IMG/VR virus record: IMGVR_UViG_3300037100_000084
Location: 1 to 46,238 of that record
DNA from: a virus
Taxonomy: Duplodnaviria; Caudoviricetes
Direction: 5' to 3' (one strand)
DNA: 46,238 bases
Positions 1-46,238 of this stretch are shown piece by piece (position 1 is the stretch's first letter; each line of letters begins with the position of its first letter). The notes under the pieces were generated by a model that did no database searches, was not told where the DNA came from, and saw only the letters and a list, made by a program, of their open reading frames with translations. The translations under genes were made by a program, and so were the position numbers.

Positions 1-183
1 TCGATCTATCTGCTCGTGAGCCTGGACCATACCGTAGGGTGCGTTGCCCACGTGGTTGGTCAACATCGTTACTCCGTCGTCACCGAGGCGCACGAACTTG
101 GGGTCGTAGCATCCGGGGATCAGGCAGTTCCATGTGACGATCCCGCCGTCCCACTCGTGGATGGTGACCTGGGGCTTTTTCAC
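1..183 (-). CDS. Hypothetical protein, 3'-partial (MKKPQVTIHEWDGG...)
   Basis: Own translation: GTG at 183 abuts the upstream stop; frame stays open to the window edge. Confidence 0.45.
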   Translation of the reverse strand, partial: MKKPQVTIHEWDGGIVTWNCLIPGCYDPKFVRLGDDGVTMLTNHVGNAPYGMVQAHEQIDR

Positions 184-285
184 TCAATGTCCTTTGTAGA
201 CCTGTAGCCCAGCATAGAGAACCACGAGGAGCCCTCCATACCAAGCGATTCTCAGTGTCGTTCGCGTTTTTTGCAGAAATTTCAT
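184..285 (-). CDS. 33-aa hydrophobic peptide MKFLQKTRTTLRIAWYGGLLVVLYAGLQVYKGH (cassette slot 5, left)
   Basis: Own translation; ATGA overlap with 282..578, AGGAG upstream, one hydrophobic stretch. Confidence 0.5.
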   Translation of the reverse strand: MKFLQKTRTTLRIAWYGGLLVVLYAGLQVYKGH

Positions 286-578
286 TCGCTGGACTCCTGT
301 GAGAGGGACTCCAAAATGGCGTCACGAAGGAGTGTGAACGCGTCGTCGTAAACATCTTTGTGCGCCCACGGCAGGTTCCCGAGCGGTCGTGCGTCGGAGT
401 TCCAAATCTTCTCAATCAGCGAATCCAAAAATTCGCGGCTCAGTACAGGTGGCTCTACCGGGGCCGCGAAGTGACGCCATTCTCGGTACTGAGGGTCGGC
501 GTGAAACCATTTCTGTAGGAATGAATCCCACACGATTCCCTCTTCGCAGATTTTGCAAGTCAGGTCGCGGTCACTCAT
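282..578 (-). CDS. Modular cassette protein MSDRD-[CxxC..H module]-APVEPPVLSR-[module]-DAILESLSQE
   Basis: ORF track; shares three motifs with 44519..44929 but the intervening segments are unrelated. Confidence 0.75.
   Translation of the reverse strand: MSDRDLTCKICEEGIVWDSFLQKWFHADPQYREWRHFAAPVEPPVLSREFLDSLIEKIWNSDARPLGNLPWAHKDVYDDAFTLLRDAILESLSQESSE
294..329. repeat. Junction repeat C, copy 1 (36 bp)
   Basis: ctcctgtgagagggactccaaaatggcgtcacgaag; 35/36 identical to 44528-44563. Confidence 0.95.
434..465. repeat. Intragenic junction repeat B, copy 1 (32 bp)
   Basis: cgcggctcagtacaggtggctctaccggggcc; identical to 44677-44708. Confidence 0.95.
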
Positions 579-593
579 TCGCGGGGCTCCCCA
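564..593. repeat. Junction repeat D, copy 1 (30 bp)
   Basis: gtcgcggtcactcattcgcggggctcccca; identical to 44915-44944. Confidence 0.95.
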
Positions 594-841
594 AAAGTGA
601 AAGGTTCAGGGTCAGTTTGCGCGAAGTCTTGACCCGCGCACTCGTGAGAGCAGTACCATGACCAGTCGTGCCAGACGCCTCGCAGCCCGACCTTTCCGGG
701 CGCAAGTTGATTGAATGACGCGCCGCACTTTCGGCACGAGCGTAGGAAACGCTGCCCTTCTACGGAGTCTTTTGGGTATCCCATCACGGACCGCTCACGA
801 AGTGGATAGTCGTACGGCATGATTTTCGTTTCGTCGTTCAT
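575..841 (-). CDS. Small Cys-containing (CxxC...CxxxC) hypothetical protein, cassette cargo
   Basis: ORF track; ATGA overlaps at both ends. Confidence 0.7.
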   Translation of the reverse strand: MNDETKIMPYDYPLRERSVMGYPKDSVEGQRFLRSCRKCGASFNQLAPGKVGLRGVWHDWSWYCSHECAGQDFAQTDPEPFTFGEPRE

Positions 842-861
842 CCTTGCGTCCCTACAGGTGG
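838..861. repeat. Junction repeat A
   Basis: tcatccttgcgtccctacaggtgg; reads PPVGTQG-stop/ATG on the minus strand. Confidence 0.95.
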
Positions 862-1410
862 TGCCGCCAGCCTTTGCGAAAATCTGTCTAACGCCCGTTG
901 CATCGAGTGACTGCCGGGGAACAGGTCTATGAACTCGTCGTCGGTTTCGTACACCAAGAGGTCGAGTATCCAGTCATTGAAAGCGTCGGGCTTGGCTCCG
1001 CGTTGTCCGGTCTGTCGCGTCACCGCGCAGCTGAGCCAGTCGCGGACCATTGGCTTACGCTTGTTGTCTTTCCGCGCTGGTTGGAAGATCACCGGCTCCC
1101 AGGCGTATTGAACGGTCGTTGGCCTGATCTGGTGCCAGGTCTTTGTCCACGCAGCGACGCGAAACGGAACATTCACGGCCTTCCCGTCCTCTTTGCGCTG
1201 GCGGCAACCCGTCGCTACATGCAAGTCGCTGGGATTGCAGGAGTAGGCCCAACCGTCAGCGTTCGCGGCAAGCCAGCTGAGAAGTTTGTTGTGAGTGTTC
1301 GCCGCGTCCCAGCACTCCCCATCCCACGGCATTTCTCCGCCATCATTGTGAAAGTGCTCGTAGCTGGCGCATTGTCCTAGGTAAGGAGGATCGGCGTAGA
1401 CGAGTTTCAT
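838..1410 (-). CDS. Compact amino-(N4-C/N6-A) DNA methyltransferase-like protein
   Basis: N-terminal DPPY, later KP and DLFPGS (FxG-like), i.e. beta-class motif order. Confidence 0.7.
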   Translation of the reverse strand: MKLVYADPPYLGQCASYEHFHNDGGEMPWDGECWDAANTHNKLLSWLAANADGWAYSCNPSDLHVATGCRQRKEDGKAVNVPFRVAAWTKTWHQIRPTTVQYAWEPVIFQPARKDNKRKPMVRDWLSCAVTRQTGQRGAKPDAFNDWILDLLVYETDDEFIDLFPGSHSMQRALDRFSQRLAAPPVGTQG

Positions 1411-1431
1411 TCTTGCGTCCCTACAGGTGGC
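1407..1431. repeat. Junction repeat A
   Basis: tcattcttgcgtccctacaggtggc (PPVGTQE-stop/ATG). Confidence 0.95.
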
Positions 1432-1628
1432 CCCGAATCAACAGGCGTTAGAGTTGCGATGCCGTGAAGGGCGTTCGCCAGATCGTCCAATGAGCAAAAC
1501 TTCTCTTGAATGATCGTGCCACCACCCCACGGCTTTGGACCGGCGATGCGCGTGTCATTGAGATAGAACGAGTTGCCCTCAACGCCCTTCATGAAGAGGA
1601 TGCTGATGGTCTTGGTTTCGTCACGCAT
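1407..1628 (-). CDS. Hypothetical protein, cassette cargo (73 aa)
   Basis: ORF track; AAAGGAG SD upstream; ends in PPVGTQE. Confidence 0.75.
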   Translation of the reverse strand: MRDETKTISILFMKGVEGNSFYLNDTRIAGPKPWGGGTIIQEKFCSLDDLANALHGIATLTPVDSGPPVGTQE

Positions 1629-1671
1629 TTTTCAATCTCCTTTCGGTTGCGTCCCTACAGGTGGCGACAGA
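1626..1671. repeat. Junction repeat A* (long variant)
   Basis: catttttcaatctcctttcggttgcgtccctacaggtggcgacaga; first 27 bp identical to 46212-46238. Confidence 0.95.
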
Positions 1672-2009
1672 ACAGCGGCCAACTTTTCACGCCATTTTTC
1701 GACGGCGATCCGCCATGAGTTGCTGGGCCAACCCGAGTCCGCATAACGGTCCTCGATCAGCCGCGAAGCCTCGTTCAGCGCGTCAACAACTTCCTGCTCC
1801 AGGCGCGGCGCGGGTACTGGCTCTACCGGCGCACGCCAATTTTTGCAATCGCACGCGGGACGCGGCGCAAAGTCAGTTGGTGTCCAAGGAAAACGGCACG
1901 AGAAGTGACCGCAGTCGGGATTGGCTCCGCACTCCATCTGGAGCAAGTCATCATCGTGCCGGTGAAATGACATCGCGTGACCGCACTTACACGGATCTTC
2001 GTCGCTCAT
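1632..2009 (-). CDS. Two-module protein: Cys/His-rich domain, APVEPV linker, helical domain
   Basis: Start moved to MSDEDPCKCGH (ATGA overlap with 2006..2560); ends SPPVGTQPKGD. Confidence 0.7.
   Translation of the reverse strand: MSDEDPCKCGHAMSFHRHDDDLLQMECGANPDCGHFSCRFPWTPTDFAPRPACDCKNWRAPVEPVPAPRLEQEVVDALNEASRLIEDRYADSGWPSNSWRIAVEKWREKLAAVLSPPVGTQPKGD
1814..1832. repeat. Degenerate repeat B (intragenic)
   Basis: gtactggctctaccggcgc, encoding APVEPV. Confidence 0.7.
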
Positions 2010-2036
2010 TTCTCTTCCCGCCCCTCTACTGGTGCA
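2006..2036. repeat. Junction repeat A' (variant)
   Basis: cccctctactggtgca core at 2021-2036, shared with 2566-2581; APVEG..stop/ATG. Confidence 0.85.
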
Positions 2037-2560
2037 CCGAAAATCAAAAGCACGCATCCGAACGGAGGGCGGTTATTTGCAGCCGCTCCCTCATCGCCGG
2101 GGTTGGTGAACTTCAATCGCCCTCGAATGAACTGTGTCCGTAGTCTCGAGTCGTCTCTGTCGCGAATTGGCTCTACAAGGTCTTGCCACCACGACTGTTC
2201 TGTGCGGTTTGCCGGAAGCAACATGACCGTTTCGCACGATGAATTAAGAGCTTTACGGACCCACGGCTCGATATTGGAGTAGGGAGGGTTGCACCACACG
2301 ATCTCGTCGTCCCAGTCTTGCTCTAACCCGTTGTCTTGCGCCGTGTAGAACTTTGCGCACTTGGCATTGGCTACGCTCGCCGCAACGTCCACTGTGAAAC
2401 GAAAGTTTCGATCCCACTCGTCAAAGAACGATTGGGGGGTTCCTCGGTCATCGACCTCTTCTGCCGGATCCACGTCAGGGCCAAACAGTCGCGGCGAGTT
2501 CGGGCGCTTGGCTACCTGTTGAGGATGGTTCTTAGCCTTGAAACGTGAAAGTCCGCTCAT
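2006..2560 (-). CDS. Phage DNA N6-adenine methyltransferase (phage Dam-type family)
   Basis: TP..FF, FTVDVAAS..NAKC, WCNPPYS, LLPANRTE..WW and GRLKF motifs. Confidence 0.9.
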   Translation of the reverse strand: MSGLSRFKAKNHPQQVAKRPNSPRLFGPDVDPAEEVDDRGTPQSFFDEWDRNFRFTVDVAASVANAKCAKFYTAQDNGLEQDWDDEIVWCNPPYSNIEPWVRKALNSSCETVMLLPANRTEQSWWQDLVEPIRDRDDSRLRTQFIRGRLKFTNPGDEGAAANNRPPFGCVLLIFGAPVEGREEK

Positions 2561-2581
2561 TCCGTCCCCTCTACTGGTGCA
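2554..2581. repeat. Junction repeat A' (variant)
   Basis: cgctcattccgtcccctctactggtgca; APVEGTE-stop/ATG. Confidence 0.85.
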
Positions 2582-3144
2582 GCGGACTTCTCTCCCTCGT
2601 CGGTCGGTTCGGGGTCAGCGACTACCTCTACTATTAAATCTTTCGAGTTGTTTAATGCTGCCGCCTCAATCGCCGCGTGAAGTCGTCGCAACTCTTGTTG
2701 AAGATACGCCTCAGGCATCGTCTCCGCGACGAACCACAGCAATTCGTCCTCGGCTTGCGCGTTCACAATCGCCAGCACGTGCGAACAGTTCTCGCAGCCG
2801 TCGCCCAAACACGTCGGGTGGTCAGCGACTACGAGGGGCAGGGACTCGATGATTTCGATTGCCGTTTCCAGACCTGCCCAAAAGTGGGGCTCCATAGCTG
2901 CCTCGCGCGGGTCGTCAAGTCGAGCGGTCTCGTCACTGTAGGTTTGCAGCGCATCTATCGCTTCTTTTCTGCTAATGGCGTCAGTCATGGGGGGCCTCCA
3001 GTTCTCGTCTAGCTCGAAGTCCTCGCACGGGCAGTCGTCGCAGCCATGAGGCGCGGGCGCGTGCCAGTGGCGCACTCCTCCGCAGACGCAGCGGTCCATG
3101 GCAGGGACGCCGTGGCGGATCGGGTAGTCGGGGTGCTTTATCAT
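2557..3144 (-). CDS. Multi-module hypothetical protein with N-terminal Cys/His-rich domain
   Basis: Start MIKHP at ATGA overlap; CVCG...H...CDDCPC; internal MTDAISRKEAI could be a second start (2988). Confidence 0.65.
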   Translation of the reverse strand: MIKHPDYPIRHGVPAMDRCVCGGVRHWHAPAPHGCDDCPCEDFELDENWRPPMTDAISRKEAIDALQTYSDETARLDDPREAAMEPHFWAGLETAIEIIESLPLVVADHPTCLGDGCENCSHVLAIVNAQAEDELLWFVAETMPEAYLQQELRRLHAAIEAAALNNSKDLIVEVVADPEPTDEGEKSAAPVEGTE

Positions 3145-3602
3145 GTCCCGCTCCCAGCTGCGCAGCCGCACCAGAATGAGTCGTACTCCATGTGAGGGTG
3201 CGCCTCAAAGGTCGAATTGGTCGGGTCGGACTCCTTGATGTGCTTGCAGTAGGGACAGCGCATCTGGCGCAACTCGGGCTCAGACTCGTTGATGCCGACG
3301 TCGTCGCGCTCGGCCTCGGCCTTCTTGGCCTTCTCCTGGTCGATGCGCGCCAGGACCTCGGAGCGCGAGAGGGTGCACACGTCCTTCGAACCCTCCCAGG
3401 TCGCCTTCTCCTCGTCGGTGAGGGGGAACGACCAGTGGATGCGCACCGGCTCGTCACACTGGGGGCAGCGGTCCTCTATCGGGCGAATCTGGACCATCCC
3501 GCACGGGCACGCGCGAGACTCACTCGGCATCGCCATCGCCGACCCGTCGCCCTCGATCGGTGTCCACGTGTCCGGGTACTTGTGGAAGTGCTCGACGACC
3601 AT
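3141..3602 (-). CDS. Cys-rich (zinc-ribbon) hypothetical protein
   Basis: Start MVVEH at TGATG overlap; several CxC/CxxC motifs. Confidence 0.65.
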   Translation of the reverse strand: MVVEHFHKYPDTWTPIEGDGSAMAMPSESRACPCGMVQIRPIEDRCPQCDEPVRIHWSFPLTDEEKATWEGSKDVCTLSRSEVLARIDQEKAKKAEAERDDVGINESEPELRQMRCPYCKHIKESDPTNSTFEAHPHMEYDSFWCGCAAGSGT

Positions 3603-3940: not shown

Positions 3941-4056
3941 CGCCTTACCACCGAACACGCGATGTTGGGGAAGTTACCGACGAATCGCCACAGGTGCGCG
4001 TGACTAACCGATGCCGAGAACGTAGCTGATCCGACGGTGCAGAGAAGATGGACCAT
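3937..4056 (-). CDS. 39-aa hypothetical protein
   Basis: Fills the gap exactly, with TGATG and ATGA overlaps. Confidence 0.4.
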   Translation of the reverse strand: MVHLLCTVGSATFSASVSHAHLWRFVGNFPNIACSVVRR

Positions 4057-4433
4057 CAGTCCTCGACCGGTTCGTACGTTTGCTCGAAGATGTCGGGCTT
4101 GCTCCAGCGCCGTTCCCACGTCCTAATGCGATGGCAGTTAGCACAACGAACTTCGCATTTGGCTATTTCTGCGTCAGCCTGGGCGCGGCTTTTGCACGAC
4201 GACACCAGAAGCAATTTCTCACCATCGACGTGATCGAAGTCCAGCGCCGAAGGATGGCCGCTAAACCCGCAGTCAACACAGCCGCGCTCCGTCTTGATTG
4301 AATCCAAGTATCGTCTTAGATCGGTAGCGCGAATGTTCGCCTTGGCTTGCTTCTCCGCCTTGCGCTCAACGGGAAGATTCTTCCACCAGTTACGGCGATA
4401 GGCCCTCTCAGCATCTTTGTCTTTAAGAGGCAT
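4056..4433 (-). CDS. HNH endonuclease (putative free-standing homing endonuclease)
   Basis: CVDCG...LDFDHV...EIAKCEVRCANCHRIRT. Confidence 0.88.
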   Translation of the reverse strand: MPLKDKDAERAYRRNWWKNLPVERKAEKQAKANIRATDLRRYLDSIKTERGCVDCGFSGHPSALDFDHVDGEKLLLVSSCKSRAQADAEIAKCEVRCANCHRIRTWERRWSKPDIFEQTYEPVED

Positions 4434-4725
4434 CTTCAACCCTTTCATAAGTGGCCTCGAAGATATCCGGTTTTACTGGATAGAACTCGCCCTGGACGCC
4501 GCGAATAATCCAGTCGCCAACCGTCGCCCGCATCTCTCCTTCGAGCGTCACCACGAAGATGTCGGTGCCATTGTGCCAGGCGTGGCCCTTACCTTCGTTT
4601 GAGGGTGGACGTCCCTGGTTAATCCAGTTCACGATCGCGTCCATGTCAGGCGAGCCAACCTCGTTGTTCGTGTTGAATCTCATCGCCTCGATGACAACGG
4701 GCTTCTTACGGAACTTAGTCGCCAT
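4423..4725 (-). CDS. Conserved phage protein (KFRKKPVVIEA...TLEG...GDWII.G..GEFYP.KPDIF family)
   Basis: Recognisable motif set of a widespread small phage protein; function unknown. Confidence 0.8.
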   Translation of the reverse strand: MATKFRKKPVVIEAMRFNTNNEVGSPDMDAIVNWINQGRPPSNEGKGHAWHNGTDIFVVTLEGEMRATVGDWIIRGVQGEFYPVKPDIFEATYERVEDAS

Positions 4726-5197
4726 CTTCTTCGTCCTCGTCATCTTCGATGAGCGTCGTCGGGAAGTCGTGAAGAGGTGACCCACCGACGCAGAACTCGC
4801 CCTCTGCCTCGCCCTCGCGCCATCCGCACGCTCCGCACGTGCGCAGCATCGCTCCCTGGTCAGGGTTCACCTTTGAGGCAGCAATCAGCGCGTCGCTGCG
4901 AGCGATGGCCTGGCGAACCACTTTCTCGTCGATGAACGTGGCCGAGCTCGCAGCGAAGACCTGGACCAGCGTGACGCTCTCGACGTCGCCATCCTCGTCG
5001 AACTCGTAGACAAAGTCATCCTTGATCTTCTTGGCGCGGATGGCGAGGTACACGGTTTCGCCGGCACCCACCAGGACAGGGTCGACTTTTACAGCTGCGC
5101 TCAGCCCGTCGCCCAGCTTTAGGACCTTGACGCTGGTCTTCTCGATTGCGTAACCCTCGGACGTCTTGCCAAGATCTACCGTTTCCTTTTCAGCCAT
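4715..5197 (-). CDS. Hypothetical protein with acidic tail
   Basis: ORF track; overlaps neighbours; GC-rich third positions. Confidence 0.75.
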   Translation of the reverse strand: MAEKETVDLGKTSEGYAIEKTSVKVLKLGDGLSAAVKVDPVLVGAGETVYLAIRAKKIKDDFVYEFDEDGDVESVTLVQVFAASSATFIDEKVVRQAIARSDALIAASKVNPDQGAMLRTCGACGWREGEAEGEFCVGGSPLHDFPTTLIEDDEDEEDGD

Positions 5198-6179: not shown

Positions 6180-7073
6180 CTACCTTTGGTTTTCCGCAGC
6201 CTCACGTGCCAGACGCTCTTCACGGTCCCAGGCGCTCTCGTGGTCATCTTCACCGGCGTCCACAATCTCAGCGTCGACCACGTCGTCATCTAGCAGGCTG
6301 TCGTCGAAGGGCTGAACGTCAGGCTCTTCCTCGGCCGTCATCTGACGCACGACGTGGTTGTCGACTGCCTCGGCTTGCATCAGCTCGACACTCATCGGGA
6401 GCCACGCCTTCATGCGCAGGAAGCAGGTCTTCCAAGCCATCGCTTCGAACTGATCCTTGTCAGCCCACGGGCCCTTGAGTTGACCACCCTTCTTGCCGTA
6501 GCGATCACGGTGATGCTCGACCTCGCTCTTGTGCATGACGACGAAGTTGCGACCGCCGTTGGTCTTGCGCACGACGACGTAGTAGTGCGTCGCGGGCCCA
6601 CGCTCTTCGACTGGGCAGGGCACGTGGACGAGGCGCTCGTCGAGTCCGTACTCCATTTCCAGCTTGTCGCCTTCGAAGACGGTGCGAGGAGTGATCGACA
6701 GGATCTCACCGGTGCGGTGAGCGAGCTCGGCGTAGCCCCGGTAGCCAATGATCAGCGTGGCCTCGTGGCCATACGGCACCAGGTACGCCTGCTGCATTGG
6801 ACCGAACTCGAGACCAAGGGCCGCGGCGTTGAGGATGCCACCAAAGAACGACGCCGGCGAGCAGTCGAGCAGCTTGGGCGTGGTGCGCACCAGCGTCTGG
6901 ACGGTGCGAACGTATCGCGCGGCGTCCATCTGCATGGGCAACGCCTTCTGGATCTCGGGCGTCTGCTTCTCGATCATGTCGCGCAGGCTCTTCGAACCAG
7001 TGGTTGCAATCTCGGTGGACGCTGCTTCTTTGACGGCGTTACGCGCCGCCTCGGCCTTTGAATCTTGTGTCAT
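6180..7073 (-). CDS. recT: RecT family single-strand annealing protein
   Basis: IQKALP...PKLLDC...LGLE...AYLVPY...IIGYRGY.EL..R...W...FEAMA.KT; acidic tail; adjacent exonuclease. Confidence 0.95.
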   Translation of the reverse strand: MTQDSKAEAARNAVKEAASTEIATTGSKSLRDMIEKQTPEIQKALPMQMDAARYVRTVQTLVRTTPKLLDCSPASFFGGILNAAALGLEFGPMQQAYLVPYGHEATLIIGYRGYAELAHRTGEILSITPRTVFEGDKLEMEYGLDERLVHVPCPVEERGPATHYYVVVRKTNGGRNFVVMHKSEVEHHRDRYGKKGGQLKGPWADKDQFEAMAWKTCFLRMKAWLPMSVELMQAEAVDNHVVRQMTAEEEPDVQPFDDSLLDDDVVDAEIVDAGEDDHESAWDREERLAREAAENQR

Positions 7074-8008
7074 TTTGCCCCCTTCGGCACTGACCAGCGC
7101 CGCGACTCGCTCGCGGCGACTGTGTATTCCTTACGCTGTACAACTTGCCACTTGGCTACGATATCCCCGTCGTGTCGCGCCACTTCTGCCCCATCCATCA
7201 GGACAATCATCCGATTCTCAATCTCGTTCAGGCGCTGGGTCTCTATCTCGATCGCGGCCTTTTGTGTGGCGCGTCGTTGCAAGAGCGTTACGAACTCATC
7301 GTCAACTTCGATTTCCTCGCGCGTGGCGTTGGCGTAGTGCGCCCTCAAGGCTTCCTTGGTGGACTCTGAGCCATCGATCTCTGGCATGCGCTGAAGCGTG
7401 ATGAGTGTCCACATGCGCTCCTCGGCCTTCACCATGTCAGCGATCAGTTCCTCGTCGCGATCGACGGCGAACCAGGTGAACTTGTTGCCCCCAATGAGCG
7501 CCGCGAAGTAGACCCGGCTGAGTCCCGTGACCGCCAGGTAGTGCTGCCCTTGAAGGCGCACGTGCAACGGAGGTCCCTCGGCCCACTCTTTGGCGTTGTA
7601 GGACCCAACGTTCTTCGCCTCGAGTATCTCAATCTCGCCGGTCTCTGAGTTGGTCACGAAGGCGTCGACGTTAGCGAGCATCCAGTTCCACTTCGTAGAG
7701 CGAAGCATGACCGGCTGGCGCTCAACGACGAGTTTGTTCTGGTCTGCGAACCAGGAGGTGATCAGGGGTTCGGCGCGACGGCCCGCTTCAAAGATTTCCT
7801 TGTCCTCGTCGGGCTGAGGGTCGACCTTGTCCAGGTAGAGCGCGACGGGACTCATGTAGGGCGACAATCCCATGGAAGCAGCTGCGTCCGAGCCACCTAG
7901 TCCGGTGCGCCGCAACTCCAGCCACTCTTCGCGCGAGACGGCGTCGGTGTCCTCGCAGACCACCTCGCACTGAAAAGTGCTAAAGAAATCTAGGGCCGAT
8001 TTCGTCAT
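7070..8008 (-). CDS. YqaJ-like viral recombinase exonuclease
   Basis: WLELRRTGLGGSD...G...E...MLANVDA...LEAKN...QGQHYLAVTG. Confidence 0.93.
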   Translation of the reverse strand: MTKSALDFFSTFQCEVVCEDTDAVSREEWLELRRTGLGGSDAAASMGLSPYMSPVALYLDKVDPQPDEDKEIFEAGRRAEPLITSWFADQNKLVVERQPVMLRSTKWNWMLANVDAFVTNSETGEIEILEAKNVGSYNAKEWAEGPPLHVRLQGQHYLAVTGLSRVYFAALIGGNKFTWFAVDRDEELIADMVKAEERMWTLITLQRMPEIDGSESTKEALRAHYANATREEIEVDDEFVTLLQRRATQKAAIEIETQRLNEIENRMIVLMDGAEVARHDGDIVAKWQVVQRKEYTVAASESRRWSVPKGAK

Positions 8009-8009
8009 C

Positions 8010-8294
8010 TCATTTTCCTTTTGGCGCTCCACACGCCGGGCAAAATCCTGAGCGCAACTTCGTGTGGTCACGTTGGCAGGTCTCTGTGACATCGACGGCG
8101 CCACCGCCAGCCTTGGCTTGTTCGAGTCGTCGCTCGCAGTCGACGAGGATGTGGAAGCACTTCATGGCCTTCTCGCGTGCGACCCCGAGTTCATCTTCGA
8201 GTCGCTTGACCTCGCCCTGCGCACTGGCCGTGTCCATGACTGCGTGGTCGTACTCACGTTGGGCACCGATCAGGGTGATCATGGGCTCAGTCAC
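8010..8294 (-). CDS. Hypothetical coiled-coil protein with C-terminal Zn ribbon
   Basis: ORF track; FCPACG. Confidence 0.65.
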   Translation of the reverse strand: MTEPMITLIGAQREYDHAVMDTASAQGEVKRLEDELGVAREKAMKCFHILVDCERRLEQAKAGGGAVDVTETCQRDHTKLRSGFCPACGAPKGK

Positions 8295-23354: not shown

Positions 23355-23833
23355 TATTCCGTCTGGACGTCTGAGCCTTCGGGCAGCGACTCGGTCGGCT
23401 CAACTTCGCCGTCGTGGTCGTGTGCCTCGGACTCCGCTTCGACCTCTTCGGCTCGCGCTTCGGCCTCGGTGTCACCGTCGTCGTCGTTGATCGTCCGCTC
23501 GGCATTGTCCTCTTCGGCGTCGGCCTTCTCGTCGGCCTTCTCCTCGTCGGTGAGGACTGGCTCTTCGTAGGTGTACTGCGAAGAGACCGAAACTGACAGG
23601 ATCGTCTGCTCGCCCTTCTCGTGGGTACGGTCCACGCCTGAGAACGTGACCAGGAACGGACCTTCGCCGATCGTGTCACAGAGATCCTTGGCGGCCTTCA
23701 TGGCTCCAGGAAACAGGCCGTCCTTCTCAAGTTCCGAGAGTTGGCCGCTGGCCGCGAGCTCGGCGGCAAGGCTTTCCTCGTTGATTTCGTCGGACGCCTT
23801 GGCGCTAACGGTGATATTGAAACCTCGGGCCAC
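23354..23833 (-). CDS. Highly acidic hypothetical protein
   Basis: AAGGAGG SD; E/D-rich C-terminal half. Confidence 0.75.
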   Translation of the reverse strand: MARGFNITVSAKASDEINEESLAAELAASGQLSELEKDGLFPGAMKAAKDLCDTIGEGPFLVTFSGVDRTHEKGEQTILSVSVSSQYTYEEPVLTDEEKADEKADAEEDNAERTINDDDGDTEAEARAEEVEAESEAHDHDGEVEPTESLPEGSDVQTE

Positions 23834-41317: not shown

Positions 41318-41659
41318 ATGACCATGACCGAGACCAGGCAGGACGCGCGGAGCGCGCTCTACCTGCAGCTGGGCGAAACGCGGTACGAAACCGTGCGCGC
41401 TACGCTTACGAAGAAAGCCAGTATTTCGGCCGTTTTAAAGGGTTTGCAGTCTGTACGGGAGACTGAGACGCACCGGCGCGCCGAGATCATCGCCAAGACC
41501 GAAACAGTCAAAGGCGAAATGTTCCTCTCGCCAAGCGGGACATTCGTTTACGTGCTCAAGCCCGAAACGAGAAAGATCAACGGAGTCTCAACCAAGATGA
41601 TGAGCGTAAAGCACGTCATTCCTGTTGGCGACGTGCTGAGTTTCGAGGTGAAGCGATGA
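41318..41659 (+). CDS. Early hypothetical protein
   Basis: ORF track; GAAGGGA SD. Confidence 0.75.
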   Translation: MTMTETRQDARSALYLQLGETRYETVRATLTKKASISAVLKGLQSVRETETHRRAEIIAKTETVKGEMFLSPSGTFVYVLKPETRKINGVSTKMMSVKHVIPVGDVLSFEVKR

Positions 41660-41943
41660 CCGATCGCGCCGAGATCACCATTACCGAAATTCGCGCTGAC
41701 GAGGTAACAAGCATCGCGAAGATCCCGGGAATTGGGTACCGTTTCCGTGTTGTCTACGTGCTCGAGGATGGCACCGAGGAGCACAGCACCGAGACCCGCC
41801 GCCTACTGCGCGACGCAAAAGCCGAGCTGATGAGCTTGCCCAAGTCACCAGCACACCCTATGAAGGCGTGCTACACCGATGGCGAGTTTTGGGGAACCAG
41901 CACGAGCTACTACATTGGCCCGCGAGTGGGAGTAACCCAATGA
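41656..41943 (+). CDS. Early hypothetical protein
   Basis: ATGA overlap; GAGGTG SD. Confidence 0.75.
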   Translation: MTDRAEITITEIRADEVTSIAKIPGIGYRFRVVYVLEDGTEEHSTETRRLLRDAKAELMSLPKSPAHPMKACYTDGEFWGTSTSYYIGPRVGVTQ

Positions 41944-42230
41944 ACGAGGCCCGCCTAGACGCACTGTCACAGTGCGCGCGCGCAGTCGACGAGGTGCTAG
42001 ACACCATTCTGCGAAACCACGAGCCAGAAGCCTGGCAAGTGCTCACAGACGCCCGCGAAGCCGTTTTAGAGTCGGCAGACCCAGAGCTAGCAGCAACGTG
42101 GCGGGATCTCGAGAAGCAAGTGCGCGACTACGAAGACGGCGACCAAACCATGAACCAGGATCAGTACGAAGAGACCAGAGACGCGCGCGAAGAGGCTTTC
42201 TTCGCCATCGTGACAGATTGGAGGAACTAA
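41940..42230 (+). CDS. Early hypothetical acidic protein
   Basis: Start moved to MNEARL at ATGA overlap; GGGAG SD. Confidence 0.7.
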   Translation: MNEARLDALSQCARAVDEVLDTILRNHEPEAWQVLTDAREAVLESADPELAATWRDLEKQVRDYEDGDQTMNQDQYEETRDAREEAFFAIVTDWRN

Positions 42231-42355
42231 CAGGACCCAGCACGCGGAGCGCGTGCGCGCTGTCGATTGTCCCCGGCAGTGCGCAGGCGTTTCGAGTGAG
42301 ATCCATTCGATCGCTTCGCTGTTACCATGCGCAATAGGTCGCGCGAGGAGGAGAG

Positions 42356-42928
42356 ATGAGAAAGTCACTGGCCGCTGTCGCCGTGTTCGCTACGCTCGCC
42401 AATGTTTCGCTCGCCGGCGCGGCCGGGATCCACCAGCGCGCTCCCTACCAGGCGTTTGGCAATCTCTCGGGCGTGGGCGACTGCGGATATGAGAGCGACG
42501 CCAACCTGGTCCTACACCGCTGGCCACGCGCACGCATTACCACCGACGAAGTTGAGTCTGCCTATGACAACCTCGGTAACTTGTTCGCGGGCACGGACGT
42601 GACCACTGACGGTGGAGAGATCTGGACCGCGCAAGGACTATGGACCGCGCAGAACTACCTGTTATCCAAAGGCTTTGGTGGACACCGCGCGACGTCGATC
42701 GTTCAGGTAACTACCCGCGCAACGGAGATCGCCAGCGCCAACGACGGCGGTCTCGAGGTCGTGAACGAAGGCCCGGTGAGAATGCACGTGTTTGACATCA
42801 TCGCAGCGAATCGCACGCACGTGGTGATCGTCGACGACGGCTACGTGTATCACTACTCGTGGGCATGGCTCGACTGGGCCTACACGCAGAACTCAGAGAC
42901 CCTGAGCTACTACGCTGTCACCTGGTAA
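42356..42928 (+). CDS. Secreted papain-fold (cysteine peptidase-like) protein
   Basis: GAGGAGG SD; Sec-type signal peptide; GN....GDC and later H-V-F motif. Confidence 0.6.
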   Translation: MRKSLAAVAVFATLANVSLAGAAGIHQRAPYQAFGNLSGVGDCGYESDANLVLHRWPRARITTDEVESAYDNLGNLFAGTDVTTDGGEIWTAQGLWTAQNYLLSKGFGGHRATSIVQVTTRATEIASANDGGLEVVNEGPVRMHVFDIIAANRTHVVIVDDGYVYHYSWAWLDWAYTQNSETLSYYAVTW

Positions 42929-43133
42929 TTCGGTCCCACTGCGCGTACAGAACCTCGGGATCGCCGTCGCAGTTGTCGATGCGACGCCAAAGCTCCTCGG
43001 GGCTGGATTGCAACATTTCGTGTGAAGTTTCTACATCGATTGTTGCAACGTCGCCCCGCAGAAGTAGCGCGAGCGCGTCCTCAAACTCCATGTTCATCTT
43101 GATGGGTGTGTCGTAGTCAGGGTAATTCCTCAC
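42918..43133 (-). CDS. Hypothetical protein
   Basis: GTGA overlap with the resolvase gene. Confidence 0.5.
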   Translation of the reverse strand: MRNYPDYDTPIKMNMEFEDALALLLRGDVATIDVETSHEMLQSSPEELWRRIDNCDGDPEVLYAQWDRITR

Positions 43134-43621
43134 TTCTTTCGCGCATCCTTCGCCGCCGCCTTGAGCGTCTCGCGCTCCATGGTCGCCAGGTAGGTCATAT
43201 CGCACACCACGATCGTCGCGCCGACGTGAGAGAGGCCCACGGCGTACATCTTGACCGCACCAATGGAGTAGACCAGCGAGTCGTCGGCCAACAGGCCGGC
43301 GTCGACCATGGAGTCGAGACACGAGCGAATCAGCTTGTCGATGTCGGGCTTAGTCGTGTGCAGGACGCGGTACGGATCAGACTTCACGACCGGCAGTCTG
43401 AACTCGATATGGACGGACACGGGCCCACTGAAGGGCATCCCGCGGTCCTCCAGCGCCTCAAGGGCACCTTCAGCGACCAGCGTGCGCCAGACCTTGTGCT
43501 TCTCACGTCCAGTCTTCGAACTTCCATCCACGACCACGGCGCGCTTGCCGACCACGAAGGCCGACTTTGATCCTTGGGGATGGGGGACGCCTATGACCTT
43601 GAACTCAATATCGGCGGTCAC
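43130..43621 (-). CDS. rusA: RusA-like Holliday junction resolvase
   Basis: G.P.PQGSK...WR...KPDIDKL.R...D......DDS.V. Confidence 0.9.
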   Translation of the reverse strand: MTADIEFKVIGVPHPQGSKSAFVVGKRAVVVDGSSKTGREKHKVWRTLVAEGALEALEDRGMPFSGPVSVHIEFRLPVVKSDPYRVLHTTKPDIDKLIRSCLDSMVDAGLLADDSLVYSIGAVKMYAVGLSHVGATIVVCDMTYLATMERETLKAAAKDARKK

Positions 43622-43990: not shown

Positions 43991-44341
43991 TCAGTACCCG
44001 TGACACGTGCCACCAAGGTCGGGCATCCCGTTCACCTTCGCGAACTGATACAGCGCCCACGTCTGTTCGAGTGGCGTCGCTAAGTTCATGGAGAAGGGCA
44101 TCCAGGACAGTCTGTACGTCGCCCACGTTGCTGATCTCCAACCCAAACCGCCGAAATACTTCGGCCCATCGATCGCCCACGGGTCCGGCTGGCCATCCTC
44201 CTCGCAGTGATCCACCCACCTCCCTTGGACCATCATCACGGGCGTGACGTGGAGCTGCGCCGGCGTCATTGGAATGGGAGCGCCGGCGTGCGACGAAAGA
44301 GAGAAGCTCAGAACTAAAGAAATTTTGGCTGCTAGAAACAC
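43991..44341 (-). CDS. Secreted Rpf-like / transglycosylase-domain protein
   Basis: Signal-like N-terminus; CEEDG...YFGGLG....TW.......ATPLEQ. Confidence 0.72.
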   Translation of the reverse strand: MFLAAKISLVLSFSLSSHAGAPIPMTPAQLHVTPVMMVQGRWVDHCEEDGQPDPWAIDGPKYFGGLGWRSATWATYRLSWMPFSMNLATPLEQTWALYQFAKVNGMPDLGGTCHGY

Positions 44342-44432
44342 GAGACCGCCTTGATTGAGGAATGGGACTTCGCACTGCGCGTCGGTCAGTCACGGCCCTC
44401 CCCTCTGTCTCGGAGTTCTGTAAGAACGCTAG

Positions 44433-44522
44433 TCAACGGTGAAACCTCACGATGGCCAGGCAGATGTCGCCGCCGATCTCAATGCCGATGAGCCAAAGCA
44501 GGATCGCGCGAAACAGTCTCAT
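44433..44522 (-). CDS. 29-aa hydrophobic peptide MRLFRAILLWLIGIEIGGDICLAIVRFHR (cassette slot 5, right)
   Basis: Own translation; ATGA overlap; AGGAGG SD. Confidence 0.5.
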   Translation of the reverse strand: MRLFRAILLWLIGIEIGGDICLAIVRFHR

Positions 44523-44929
44523 TCGGCCTCCTGTGAGAGAGACTCCAAAATGGCGTCACGAAGTTCTTCGATTCTTGCCATGATGACGCCCGTCTCGGTA
44601 TCAGAGTACGAGGTGCCCTCATAAATCCGGGAGCGCAGCATCGCTAACACTGCATCCGTAAATGGTCGAATATCGGCGCGGCTCAGTACAGGTGGCTCTA
44701 CCGGGGCCAAAAGTGTTGCCGCGATTTCTTCGGCTTTCGCGAATGGGTCTTGAAACGCGCCGAGGTCAACGTTGTCATATGGTCCAGCGGGGCGGCAGAG
44801 ATAAAGCGTGTTGTCCGCGTAGGCGTGGAACTGCAATCCATCACCAAAGGTCGCCTTCATGGCGTCGAACGGCCCTTTCAGTTCCTGCCATTCAAGAGTC
44901 TTTCGGCCTTTTTCGTCGCGGTCACTCAT
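44519..44929 (-). CDS. Modular cassette protein MSDRD-[module]-APVEPPVLSR-[module]-DAILESLSQE
   Basis: ORF track; motif scaffold shared with 282..578. Confidence 0.75.
   Translation of the reverse strand: MSDRDEKGRKTLEWQELKGPFDAMKATFGDGLQFHAYADNTLYLCRPAGPYDNVDLGAFQDPFAKAEEIAATLLAPVEPPVLSRADIRPFTDAVLAMLRSRIYEGTSYSDTETGVIMARIEELRDAILESLSQEAE
44528..44563. repeat. Junction repeat C, copy 2
   Basis: 35/36 identical to 294-329. Confidence 0.95.
44677..44708. repeat. Intragenic junction repeat B, copy 2
   Basis: Identical to 434-465. Confidence 0.95.
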
Positions 44930-44944
44930 TCGCGGGGCTCCCCA
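44915..44944. repeat. Junction repeat D, copy 2
   Basis: Identical to 564-593. Confidence 0.95.
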
Positions 44945-45218
44945 CAGAAAACGTCACGAAATCCCAGTCCTCGTCGTACGATTCGGCGGTAAAGGTGTAG
45001 CCAAGTTCCATCGCCAGGAGTTCCAACTGAGGACGAAGCGCCGGGTACTCATAGTCGCTCAGAACGGTCGGGCGTCCACTTTTCAGCCGGTGGCGCAGGT
45101 CCGAGTAGCGAGCGCCGCACACAAAGGCGTGGTCGTCAAGCGTGCCGCCTCCGGATTTACACACGACGAACGGGACCACCAGCGCATTCTCGTGCTCGTC
45201 GTGAATTTCGTCGCTCAT
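44922..45218 (-). CDS. Hypothetical protein, cassette cargo (LVVPFVVCKS.GG..DD.AFV.G)
   Basis: ORF track; bounded by repeats A and D. Confidence 0.75.
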   Translation of the reverse strand: MSDEIHDEHENALVVPFVVCKSGGGTLDDHAFVCGARYSDLRHRLKSGRPTVLSDYEYPALRPQLELLAMELGYTFTAESYDEDWDFVTFSVGSPANE

Positions 45219-45245
45219 TCTTGCGTCACTACAGGTGGCGACAGA
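45215..45245. repeat. Junction repeat A
   Basis: tcattcttgcgtcactacaggtggcgacaga (LSPPVVTQE-stop/ATG). Confidence 0.95.
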
Positions 45246-45913
45246 TGTTGCAGAAGTTGTTGGCCGATTTCTTGCGTGTATCGCGGCGGGATGGCTTGGT
45301 GGAGTTCCTTCTGAGTCATCCAGTCGATGCCCATGAGTTTCTCTTGAATGGATTTCGCAGGCGTGTAGCCACCGTGACGCACGTACTGAGCGTGTTTCTT
45401 GTCTCGTGAGCCCCCGCCATAGACCCCAGCTACCCTCGCACCTGATGCTCGATAAACCGCACAGTTACATTGCCAGCCGCCGACTTTCCAACTCAACTCG
45501 AAGAGCCGGTGTCGTTTCAGGTACAGCGTTTCCCCGTCGGTGTCCGTCGCCGTTAGGTCAAAGACCGTTCCACATAACAAAGCCGAGGGAAGCATTGGTG
45601 CACCGACGACATTCTCAATGATGTAGGGAAGGCCAATATCGTCAAGCAATTCTCTCGTTATTCCTACCAGATCGGGGTGCTCTTTCTTGTGGGTGTGTTT
45701 CGTTATCGAATACGCCTGGCATGGAGGAGAGGCGTGAATGGCGTCGAAACCCGTGAGATACCGCGCCGCGTTTAGGGCATTGCCCTGGTGAAACTCGAAC
45801 GGATAATTCTTCTGCGGACTCAGATCCACGCCAACAACTTCAAAACCGGCATCCGCGTACCCCATCGCCGCTCCACCCGCTCCGCAGAACAAATCCAAAA
45901 GTCGAGGCTTCAT
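45215..45913 (-). CDS. DNA cytosine-C5 methyltransferase
   Basis: LLDLFCGAGG, SPPCQ, IENV, R.R.F and AIPP motifs; start moved to MKPRLL. Confidence 0.92.
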   Translation of the reverse strand: MKPRLLDLFCGAGGAAMGYADAGFEVVGVDLSPQKNYPFEFHQGNALNAARYLTGFDAIHASPPCQAYSITKHTHKKEHPDLVGITRELLDDIGLPYIIENVVGAPMLPSALLCGTVFDLTATDTDGETLYLKRHRLFELSWKVGGWQCNCAVYRASGARVAGVYGGGSRDKKHAQYVRHGGYTPAKSIQEKLMGIDWMTQKELHQAIPPRYTQEIGQQLLQHLSPPVVTQE

Positions 45914-45935
45914 TCTTGCGTCCCTACAGGTGGCG
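45909..45935. repeat. Junction repeat A
   Basis: ttcattcttgcgtccctacaggtggcg. Confidence 0.95.
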
Positions 45936-45948
45936 CCGAACGACTCAT
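45910..45948 (-). CDS. 12-codon mini-ORF MSRSAPPVGTQE
   Basis: Own translation; ATGA overlaps at both ends. Confidence 0.4.
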   Translation of the reverse strand: MSRSAPPVGTQE

Positions 45949-46214
45949 CTTTCAATCCAAAGAACGATCTTTCCGTACTTCTCTATTGCGTCGATTAGTT
46001 CCCGAGCCTCGAGGCAGACTAGATCGTTGCCCCCACCGTCCATTAAACCTTCGAGGAAAGGCACAATTTCAGAGCCGACTTCGGTTTCGTCGGTTCGGAG
46101 CGTGCTGTCGTGCCCCCACAGACGTGGCGCGAGTTTCCACGGTAGTTGATCTAGCGGGTGAATGTCCTCTTTGGGGGGAGGACTCCACGGCTTCCAATAT
46201 GTCGTTGCGCTCAT
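45945..46214 (-). CDS. Hypothetical protein, cassette cargo (89 aa)
   Basis: ORF track; AAAGGAG SD from repeat A*. Confidence 0.75.
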   Translation of the reverse strand: MSATTYWKPWSPPPKEDIHPLDQLPWKLAPRLWGHDSTLRTDETEVGSEIVPFLEGLMDGGGNDLVCLEARELIDAIEKYGKIVLWIER

Positions 46215-46238
46215 TTTTCAATCTCCTTTCGGTTGCGT
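46212..46238. repeat. Junction repeat A*, truncated by the window end
   Basis: catttttcaatctcctttcggttgcgt identical to 1626-1652. Confidence 0.95.

Follow-up and report, generated by a model that had tools for sequence, protein, structure and literature searches.

The viral record IMGVR_UViG_3300037100_000084 (46,238 bases, hereafter the window) is classed as linear, with a completeness estimate of 100%, and encodes a major capsid protein, a portal, a terminase, RecT, a YqaJ exonuclease, and RusA, with nearly all genes on the minus strand. Towards each end it carries an array of accessory genes joined by short conserved sequences, here termed linkers, of which there are about ten types, several of them intragenic. 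Each of the five longest exact repeats in the window is a linker, and all five lie within these two end arrays. The exact repeats measure 32 nucleotides for type C (upper ends at 465 and 44708), 30 for D (593 and 44944), 27 for H (1652 and 46238), 26 for A (1431 and 45934), 23 for E (329 and 44563), and 16 for A' (2036 and 2581). The core of type A is found five times on the minus strand, at 844-861, 1413-1430, 1647-1664, 45221-45238 (with one mismatch), and 45916-45933, against a mean of 0.00 in 100 shuffles, which confirms the linkers reported by an initial annotation made from the sequence alone.

All features of the two arrays lie on the minus strand and are described here in its reading direction; L numbers denote loci on other contigs, and G001, G002, and G003 are other phages that carry linkers. 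Array 1 begins with a gene (2557-2988) that has a linker at its end and none at its own start. This linker, A' (2557-2581), occurs also in L071 and is followed by a gene for a Dam-family N6-adenine methyltransferase (2006-2560; PF05869, E 8.7e-27) and by the second A' (2006-2036). The next open reading frame (ORF), at 1632-2009, is modular, with a Cys-rich module, the intragenic linker C2/F (1800-1834), a helical module, and a terminal linker A plus H. The 35 nucleotides of C2/F are identical in G002, and nine copies of F were counted. At 1626-1671, linker A carries the H extension, which provides a strong Shine-Dalgarno (SD) sequence and a start. A cargo gene without a family (1407-1628) leads to another linker A (1406-1431, repeated exactly at 45909-45934) and then to a cargo gene between two A copies (838-1410). 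This gene likely encodes an N4/N6 DNA methyltransferase-like protein, a lead drawn from a weak Pfam D12 match (E 0.0035, below the cut-off) and from Atlas neighbors at 0.90 that carry N6_N4_Mtase. Beyond linker A at 838-863 lies a cargo gene of no family (575-841), which is 100% identical over 297 nucleotides in L064, the identity ceasing just after D. Linker D (564-593) includes the first codons of the next gene, and the ORF upstream of it ends in either of two frames. The array closes with a modular ORF (282-578), in which the start after D, a variable module, the internal in-frame linker C (434-465), a second variable module, and linker E follow one another. C occurs also in G001, L064, and L075. 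E (282-329) supplies the final 15 or so codons of the ORF, an SD sequence, and a stop/start overlap; it matches 44541-44563 and occurs in L064 as well.

Array 2 starts at the contig end with linker H (46212-46238), identical to 1626-1652, followed by a cargo gene of no family (45945-46214). Linker A at 45909-45948 is borne by a 12-codon mini-ORF (45910-45948), which overlaps the upstream gene at its stop. This mini-ORF resembles an adaptor, and the same adaptor precedes other A copies among the loose contig ends of sequencing runs X1 and X2. A C5-cytosine methyltransferase gene (45215-45913; PF00145 and phrog_363) stands between this A and the mismatched A at 45214-45245. The following cargo gene (44922-45218), between A and D, has 93% nucleotide identity to a gene of G001, and the alignment runs from A to D. 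Linker D (44915-44944) then opens the modular D-C-E ORF (44519-44929), with C at 44677-44708 inside it and E at 44519-44563 at its end.

The translations bear out the C-terminal peptides that the initial annotation had described as shared, as well as the M-[SNR]-D-E starts; other details needed adjustment. Both A' copies are present, the upper one closing its gene at 2557 and not at 2554. Type A had been placed at six sites; five carry a copy, and at 46212 there is only the H extension, as the A core would fall past the contig end. C and D do occur twice each, C not at a gene boundary but inside ORFs 282-578 and 44519-44929. A linker had been claimed for every boundary from 2581 down to 282 and from 46238 down to 44519; the gene at 45945-46214 has no terminal linker and is bridged to A by the mini-ORF, and the boundaries 2985/2988 and 3141/3144, within the range 282-3144 assigned to the array at that stage, have no linker. 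Two linkers had gone unnamed: E, which is terminal, and the internal C2/F.

According to the initial annotation, fixed cargo between linkers or breakpoints away from them would count against an exchange of cassettes; it was found that cargo varies and that breakpoints concentrate at linkers. The 17 array sequences yield 53 inter-linker segments, which fall into 47 families. L064 and the window are identical from A through D, differ from D to C, and differ again from C to E, and one module follows I in L062 and L071 and F in L072. Among contigs of four independent studies, in which linkers cover 13 to 14% of the sequence, 31 of 36 and 26 of 30 listed joint ends lie no more than 6 bases from a linker; for the distinct places of loose ends among those listed, the corresponding counts are 12 of 18 and 12 of 15. 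These figures refer to the best-supported joints (the best 15 of 22 in one set, 15 of 15 in the other) and loose ends (the best 24 of 71 and 24 of 43), with gaps in read cover left out of the evidence. One cassette is cleanly absent from a 487-nucleotide contig of run X3, which joins 45214 to 45910, from A to A, the C5-methyltransferase cassette being gone. The two sides of this joint measure 181 and 306 nucleotides, and 13 letters fit either side.

The annotated cargo consists largely of DNA methyltransferases (Dam, C5, and N4/N6) and includes a PAPS-reductase-like protein, and for this reason the network likely circulates anti-restriction genes. A linker tail is found in two of the best 120 (of 5,928) homologues of the C5-methyltransferase, A plus H in one and D in the other, and is missing from the remaining 118; the tail is therefore not part of the cargo family. 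In L063, a 118-nucleotide segment present at 399-516 and 1519-1636 with 88% identity flanks the PAPS-reductase-like modular gene.

Linkers are shared by phages with different backbones. All true matches in the linker-pattern scans of viral contigs reduce to three carriers, G001, G002, and G003. No structural protein of the window has a counterpart in them (blastp, E < 1e-6), and they share with it two, one, and one accessory proteins, respectively. G001 is a complete 51.7-kb genome with direct terminal repeats and contains 11 linker matches inside 4 kb, a stretch with a GC content of 0.51 to 0.58 in a region of 0.44 to 0.54. In G002, a single ORF holds three internal linkers and a terminal one. 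The metagenome scan yielded 15 loci, namely, 12 new array fragments, one duplicate of G003, and two matches set aside as chance or unrelated, L067 and L073; L066 duplicates L001. The backbone relative L300, with a RecT 58% identical and structural genes 74 to 86% identical to those of the window, contains no linker match in 20.8 kb. Since linkers occur in unrelated phages and not in this relative, they travel with the accessory genes and not with the backbone. G002 also has a gene of the adenylosuccinate synthetase family (L272, 10416-11462), which we take to be a PurZ-like candidate for 2-aminoadenine DNA.

Most other matches were rejected. In the scans of viral contigs, 2 of 3, 1 of 3, 25 of 26, 27 of 29, 7 of 9, and 23 of 24 loci were judged chance or unrelated from their context or because no second linker type lay nearby, and in one further scan all 62 of 62 loci were the start of a common prophage gene. 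A scan of bacterial genomes (57 of 64 parts, 120 loci) returned no array, the 401 genomes examined from the G004 phylum yielded no linker A, and no host prophage was seen. Among cultured phages there was no array, methyltransferase fragments alone being matched (19 records). Runs containing the array derive from metagenomes of peat and permafrost, and the host is likely actinobacterial because WhiB is carried by two of the linker-sharing phages; WhiB was not found in the window.

Internal linkers, which comprise C, C2/F, I, J, and K, yield in-frame chimeric proteins. Of 24 segments that follow an internal linker, 20 (two of them near-duplicates) are stop free, and all 20 have lengths that are multiples of three; the other four hold a gene end. 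P0122 combines the first half of ORF 44519-44929 with a different second half, the switch occurring at C, and P0123 and ORF 282-578 retain just the start, C, and E. In the A core, the third positions 6, 9, 12, and 15 are invariant in 25 of 25 non-redundant copies, and across core positions 4 to 18 the third positions take just one of eight substitutions. By a hand count of seven D copies, four are read in one frame and three in another. The invariant third positions and the reading of D in two frames therefore point to conservation at the DNA level.

The initial annotation had also assigned to each linker an SD-like purine run. Strong runs are present in H, D, E, and A', with pairing energies of -6.9 to -10.3 kcal/mol at eight starts, whereas that of A, the commonest type, is weak: its values of -4.5, -4.5, -4.5, and -2.3 kcal/mol are near background (25th percentile of random 17-mers, -4.8). 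These energies refer to pairing with the anti-SD sequence. Linkers that end genes supply a stop/start overlap or close spacing, and M-[SNR]-[DE] begins 17 of 38 starts picked by pattern after linkers. Because of the stop/start overlap, translational coupling across the linkers may be inferred. A sigma-70-type scan found no promoter-like site in 1-3300 and two in 44300-46238, both within the C5-methyltransferase gene, and no terminator stem-loop was detected at linkers by the promoter and terminator scan of both array regions or by folding. In L004 (7860-7895), the end of linker A is in part duplicated in tandem, which creates two possible starts that share a frame.

The same order of linkers (H, A, A, D, C, E) recurs in both arrays. 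At its right end, the contig begins with 27 nucleotides identical to 1626-1652; the two arrays may thus be two alleles of one locus joined by assembly and not two arrays in one genome. In L300, the genes past the RecT region match, by eye, the RusA gene and the 42918-43130 gene of the window, which places the ends of the window side by side on the map. In run X1, the depth is 8.7 to 9.5 over the backbone, 11 to 14 over the cargo of array 2, and only 4.6 to 5.0 over distal array 1, read depth being a rough guide only, and in run X6 the interval 567-1431 occurs with no backbone. Runs X2 and X3 do not tell one array from two. On balance, 1-1625 is somewhat more likely than not to be an allele of some other phage or strain. 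Whether the arrays are one or two, cargo differs between identical joints.

The window encodes a RecT single-strand annealing protein (6180-7073, minus strand; PF03837, E 5.7e-37), a candidate exchange enzyme, next to a YqaJ/RecE-like exonuclease (7070-8104, minus strand; PF09588, E 1.1e-24), and the RusA Holliday-junction resolvase is located downstream of array 2 (43130-43621, minus strand; PF05866, E 2.8e-11). In all three near-complete carriers, an exonuclease adjoins an annealase or a likely annealase: RecT and YqaJ in the window, a RecT-like protein and an exonuclease in G001, and AAA_24 and PD-(D/E)XK proteins in G002, where AAA_24 presumably marks a Sak4-type annealase. The minimal pairing length is reported as 23 to 27 bp for Red-beta and 31 to 34 bp for RecA in the accessible part of PMC3945230. 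The exact identity of linkers, at 16 to 35 bases, straddles the Red-beta minimum and is mostly below that of RecA. From the annealase-exonuclease genes and these pairing lengths we infer homologous recombination as the route of exchange, the joints probably serving as homology for module exchange by phage exonuclease-annealase pairs of the RecT or Sak4 type.

The accessory region consists of whole and half genes, and the proposed mechanism would act at the short coding sequences, about ten in number and fixed in frame, that connect them. Co-infecting phages would recombine by single-strand annealing at 16 to 35 nucleotides of identity, and modules between joints would be swapped, added, or dropped, with the frame and the stop/start overlap kept. 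Gene-ending joints (A, A', D, E, and H) would provide a stop for the incoming gene and a start for the next, and at internal joints (C, C2/F, I, J, and K) protein modules would be fused with the frame preserved. Cargo that is new may first be joined to the upstream side of a linker by a rare chance event and subsequently pass through the network, a spread that would also keep the linkers uniform. A dedicated recombinase would not be required.

Several observations weigh against this reading. A', at 16 nucleotides, and several A matches, at 17 to 20, are shorter than the Red-beta minimum. The enzyme is assigned by co-occurrence, and L300 has RecT yet no linkers. The absence of the C5-methyltransferase cassette rests on one contig, with a depth of 4.8. 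The joints are not independent, as the same contig may occur in both sets, and binomial p-values are therefore disregarded; some of them are the other array of the window itself, and many joint sides are shorter than 30 nucleotides. Many A copies were found by an exact core match, which inflates their apparent invariance. Between fetched loci, 14 of 30 ends of long alignments are at linkers (12.6% cover); several of the remaining ends reflect similarity fading inside methyltransferases, and some are true off-linker breaks, for example, at 174/183, 1479, 1519, 2820, and 2856.

An enzyme that recognizes the linkers would account for some of the same facts. A six-base Pro-Val core shared by most linker types occurs 69 times on the coding strand of the arrays and 12 times on the other strand (24.6 kb), compared with 24 and 21 times by strand in the backbone (41.2 kb), an enrichment that suggests descent from one ancestral joint or a recognized site. 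If the core were acted on by a dedicated site-specific recombinase or nickase, whether like that of integrons, like a repetitive extragenic palindrome (REP) and its REP-associated tyrosine transposase (RAYT), or like a resolvase, encoded by the host or by an unseen phage gene, the mixing of left and right halves in combination around it would fit. The Val codon of the core makes up 25 of 603 Val codons in the backbone; it is not rare in cargo genes (16 of 72). The A core also equals the left arm of hairpins flagged as REP-like at 21 of the 120 bacterial loci (L077-L196), and the phage copies of A have no REP-like right arm. One C copy folds strongly (z, -4.7), but otherwise linkers fold no better than shuffles, with coding-strand z values below -2 in 1 of 5 C copies and in 0 of 5 C2/F, 0 of 25 A, 0 of 6 I, 0 of 7 D, and 0 of 5 A' copies, and none matches Rfam; an attC-like hairpin, considered on account of that C copy, was dropped once all copies had been folded. 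The "integrase-free" label of the initial annotation stands, as neither a tyrosine nor a serine recombinase was found in any of the four linker-bearing phage records (PF00589, the tyrosine recombinase family that includes IntI, 0 of 4 with 14 of 14 controls recovered, although a host enzyme could still act), and the Y1 transposase PF01797 is likewise found in 0 of 4. Moreover, D and E are breakpoints without the core, and identity reaches a variable distance past the core, as general homology would give. A dedicated site is therefore improbable. A broader version, in which unrelated phages of one host community would share an assembly grammar of joints derived from one Pro-Val core, recognized by a dedicated recombination activity and serving both to swap whole genes and to build multi-domain proteins combinatorially, a natural modular-cloning standard across phage lineages, is unlikely as well, if less so.

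Three other explanations were weighed. If linkers were mainly translation signals, similar to the start-associated sequences (SAS) of mycobacteriophages, with breakpoints as a side effect, the close stop/start spacing at gene-ending linkers, the strong SD of H, D, E, and A', and the recurrent M-[SNR]-[DE] starts would follow. Against this, roughly half of the types are intragenic and remote from any start, and the commonest type has a weak SD, with most conserved bases upstream of it, in coding sequence. In addition, a gene family of Cluster K mycobacteriophages usually keeps its extended SAS (ESAS) from one genome to another, as described in the accessible part of PMC3203893, whereas here one cargo is found with different linkers, so that this account is less probable than a dedicated site. 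Selection could instead act on the peptide, as a C-terminal tag (a degron or docking motif) or a flexible Pro-rich hinge, with DNA identity due to descent. By a hand count, the Pro-Val linkers do keep one frame, which is the longest one open upstream, in 23 of 25 informative A, 5 of 5 C, 9 of 9 F, and 6 of 6 informative I copies. The invariance of synonymous positions despite amino acid changes, the two frames of D, the occurrence of the same peptide at the end of some proteins and inside others, and the many C5-methyltransferase homologues without a tail make selection on the peptide less probable again. Finally, the mosaic might be an assembly artifact, short repeats having misjoined contigs of co-occurring phages. 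The right end of the window starts inside a linker, and its two arrays may well be such a join, as the shallow distal array 1 in X1 and the backbone-free 567-1431 in X6 would suggest. Misjoins, on the other hand, presuppose linkers common to different phages, which is the claim itself, and novel cargo lies between linkers within single contigs of separate assemblies. The X3 joint is long sided with its 13 ambiguous letters, and G001 is complete with direct terminal repeats, so an artifact is the least probable of these explanations. Exchange by annealing at the joints is thus preferred.

Annealing at the joints would make the arrays a case of a known model. The linkers of Botstein and Campbell, or lambdoid boundary sequences, are short conserved boundary sequences, and modules are exchanged by homologous recombination with placement and expression kept (accessible parts of PMC2839356 and PMC3029335). 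Here, too, a short conserved sequence at module boundaries is common to different phages, and mosaic breakpoints coincide with it (57 of 66 listed joint ends). The differences are that there are about ten types, that they are coding and several are intragenic, and that they are common to phages without a joint structural gene. According to the available text of PMC3029335, most mosaic joints lack boundary sequences, and in one mycobacteriophage case 18 residues at the C terminus are shared. The arrays represent a variant of the linker, or boundary-sequence, model; they are not an integron and probably not SAS or ESAS. What is new is the use of several types together, their position inside genes, and their spread over unrelated backbones.

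In the promoter-early stem-loop (PeSL) cassettes of T4-type phages, repeats also flank non-essential genes in variable regions without an integrase, and the accessible text of PMC2839356 reports that loss of a single gene leaves one chimeric repeat and draws a comparison with integrons. PeSL units are intergenic, about 100 bp long, and combine a promoter and a stem-loop (same part of PMC2839356), unlike the linkers of the window, which are 16 to 35 nucleotides long, coding, and without promoter or terminator and chain genes into one operon. A 32-bp repeat of Arthrobacter cluster AU phages lies on both sides of each gene in a five-gene cassette, again in actinobacterial phages, with deletions and translocations confined to the cassette (10.1101/2020.01.10.891226, available text). 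It differs in being one intergenic repeat type in one cluster of related phages with a fixed gene set, and neither intragenic joints nor cross-lineage sharing is described in that part of the preprint.

SAS and ESAS of Cluster K mycobacteriophages and cluster EF Microbacterium phages are likewise short motifs at accessory-gene starts in actinobacterial phages, but SAS are 13-bp, SD-centered, and found mostly after intergenic gaps, with a proposed role in translation (PMC3203893 and PMC7302621, accessible parts). Most conserved bases of the window linkers instead encode the end or middle of a protein; an SD-centered motif just upstream of starts is seen in H, D, E, and A', is weak in A, and is lacking in the intragenic types. 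ESAS are flanked by 17-bp inverted repeats; of the 25 longest inverted repeats of the window, none is located at a linker, and linkers fold no better than shuffles apart from the one C copy. The extended motif of cluster EF centers on a six-base word that is found also in A' and C, probably by chance (accessible part of PMC7302621).

In an integron, cargo genes that are unrelated and lack promoters form an array, each with one repeat, together with IntI and attC. The arrays of the window share the unrelated promoterless cargo and the single repeat per gene, whereas they have no IntI and no attC-like hairpin, and their repeats are coding and of several types. The "integron-like" wording of the initial annotation therefore holds only as an analogy, as neither an attC-like hairpin nor a promoter was found, while its integrase-free exchange of cassettes at linkers is supported. 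As for REP/RAYT systems, the A copies do not fold, and PF01797 is missing from the four records.

Two sources of phage mosaicism have been debated for decades: exchange at linkers that are conserved, and illegitimate joins made at random and then filtered by selection. With their exact joints, the natural alleles to either side of them, a precisely missing cassette, and candidate enzymes, these phages make the linker model testable, and the intragenic joints offer a concrete route to domain shuffling of phage proteins. Ongoing exchange of protein fragments between phages is described in PMC10684548, whose accessible text is agnostic on the genetic mechanism and never uses the word "linker"; here, defined DNA joints mark the ends of the fragments. 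The literature search, mostly outside subscription papers and without supplements, found no description of multi-type coding linkers within and between genes across unrelated phages.

Outside the arrays, a block of plus-strand ORFs without family matches (41318-42928) breaks the otherwise minus-strand genome. A gene for an HNH endonuclease follows a phrog_419 gene (4056-4433 and 4423-4785), and 12 of 14 residues near the end of the phrog_419 gene are repeated. This looks like an insertion with a duplicated 3' end, and the repeat is none of the linkers. An exact repeat of 21 nucleotides (3403-3423 and 23535-23555) is common to an accessory ORF and an ORF of the late region.

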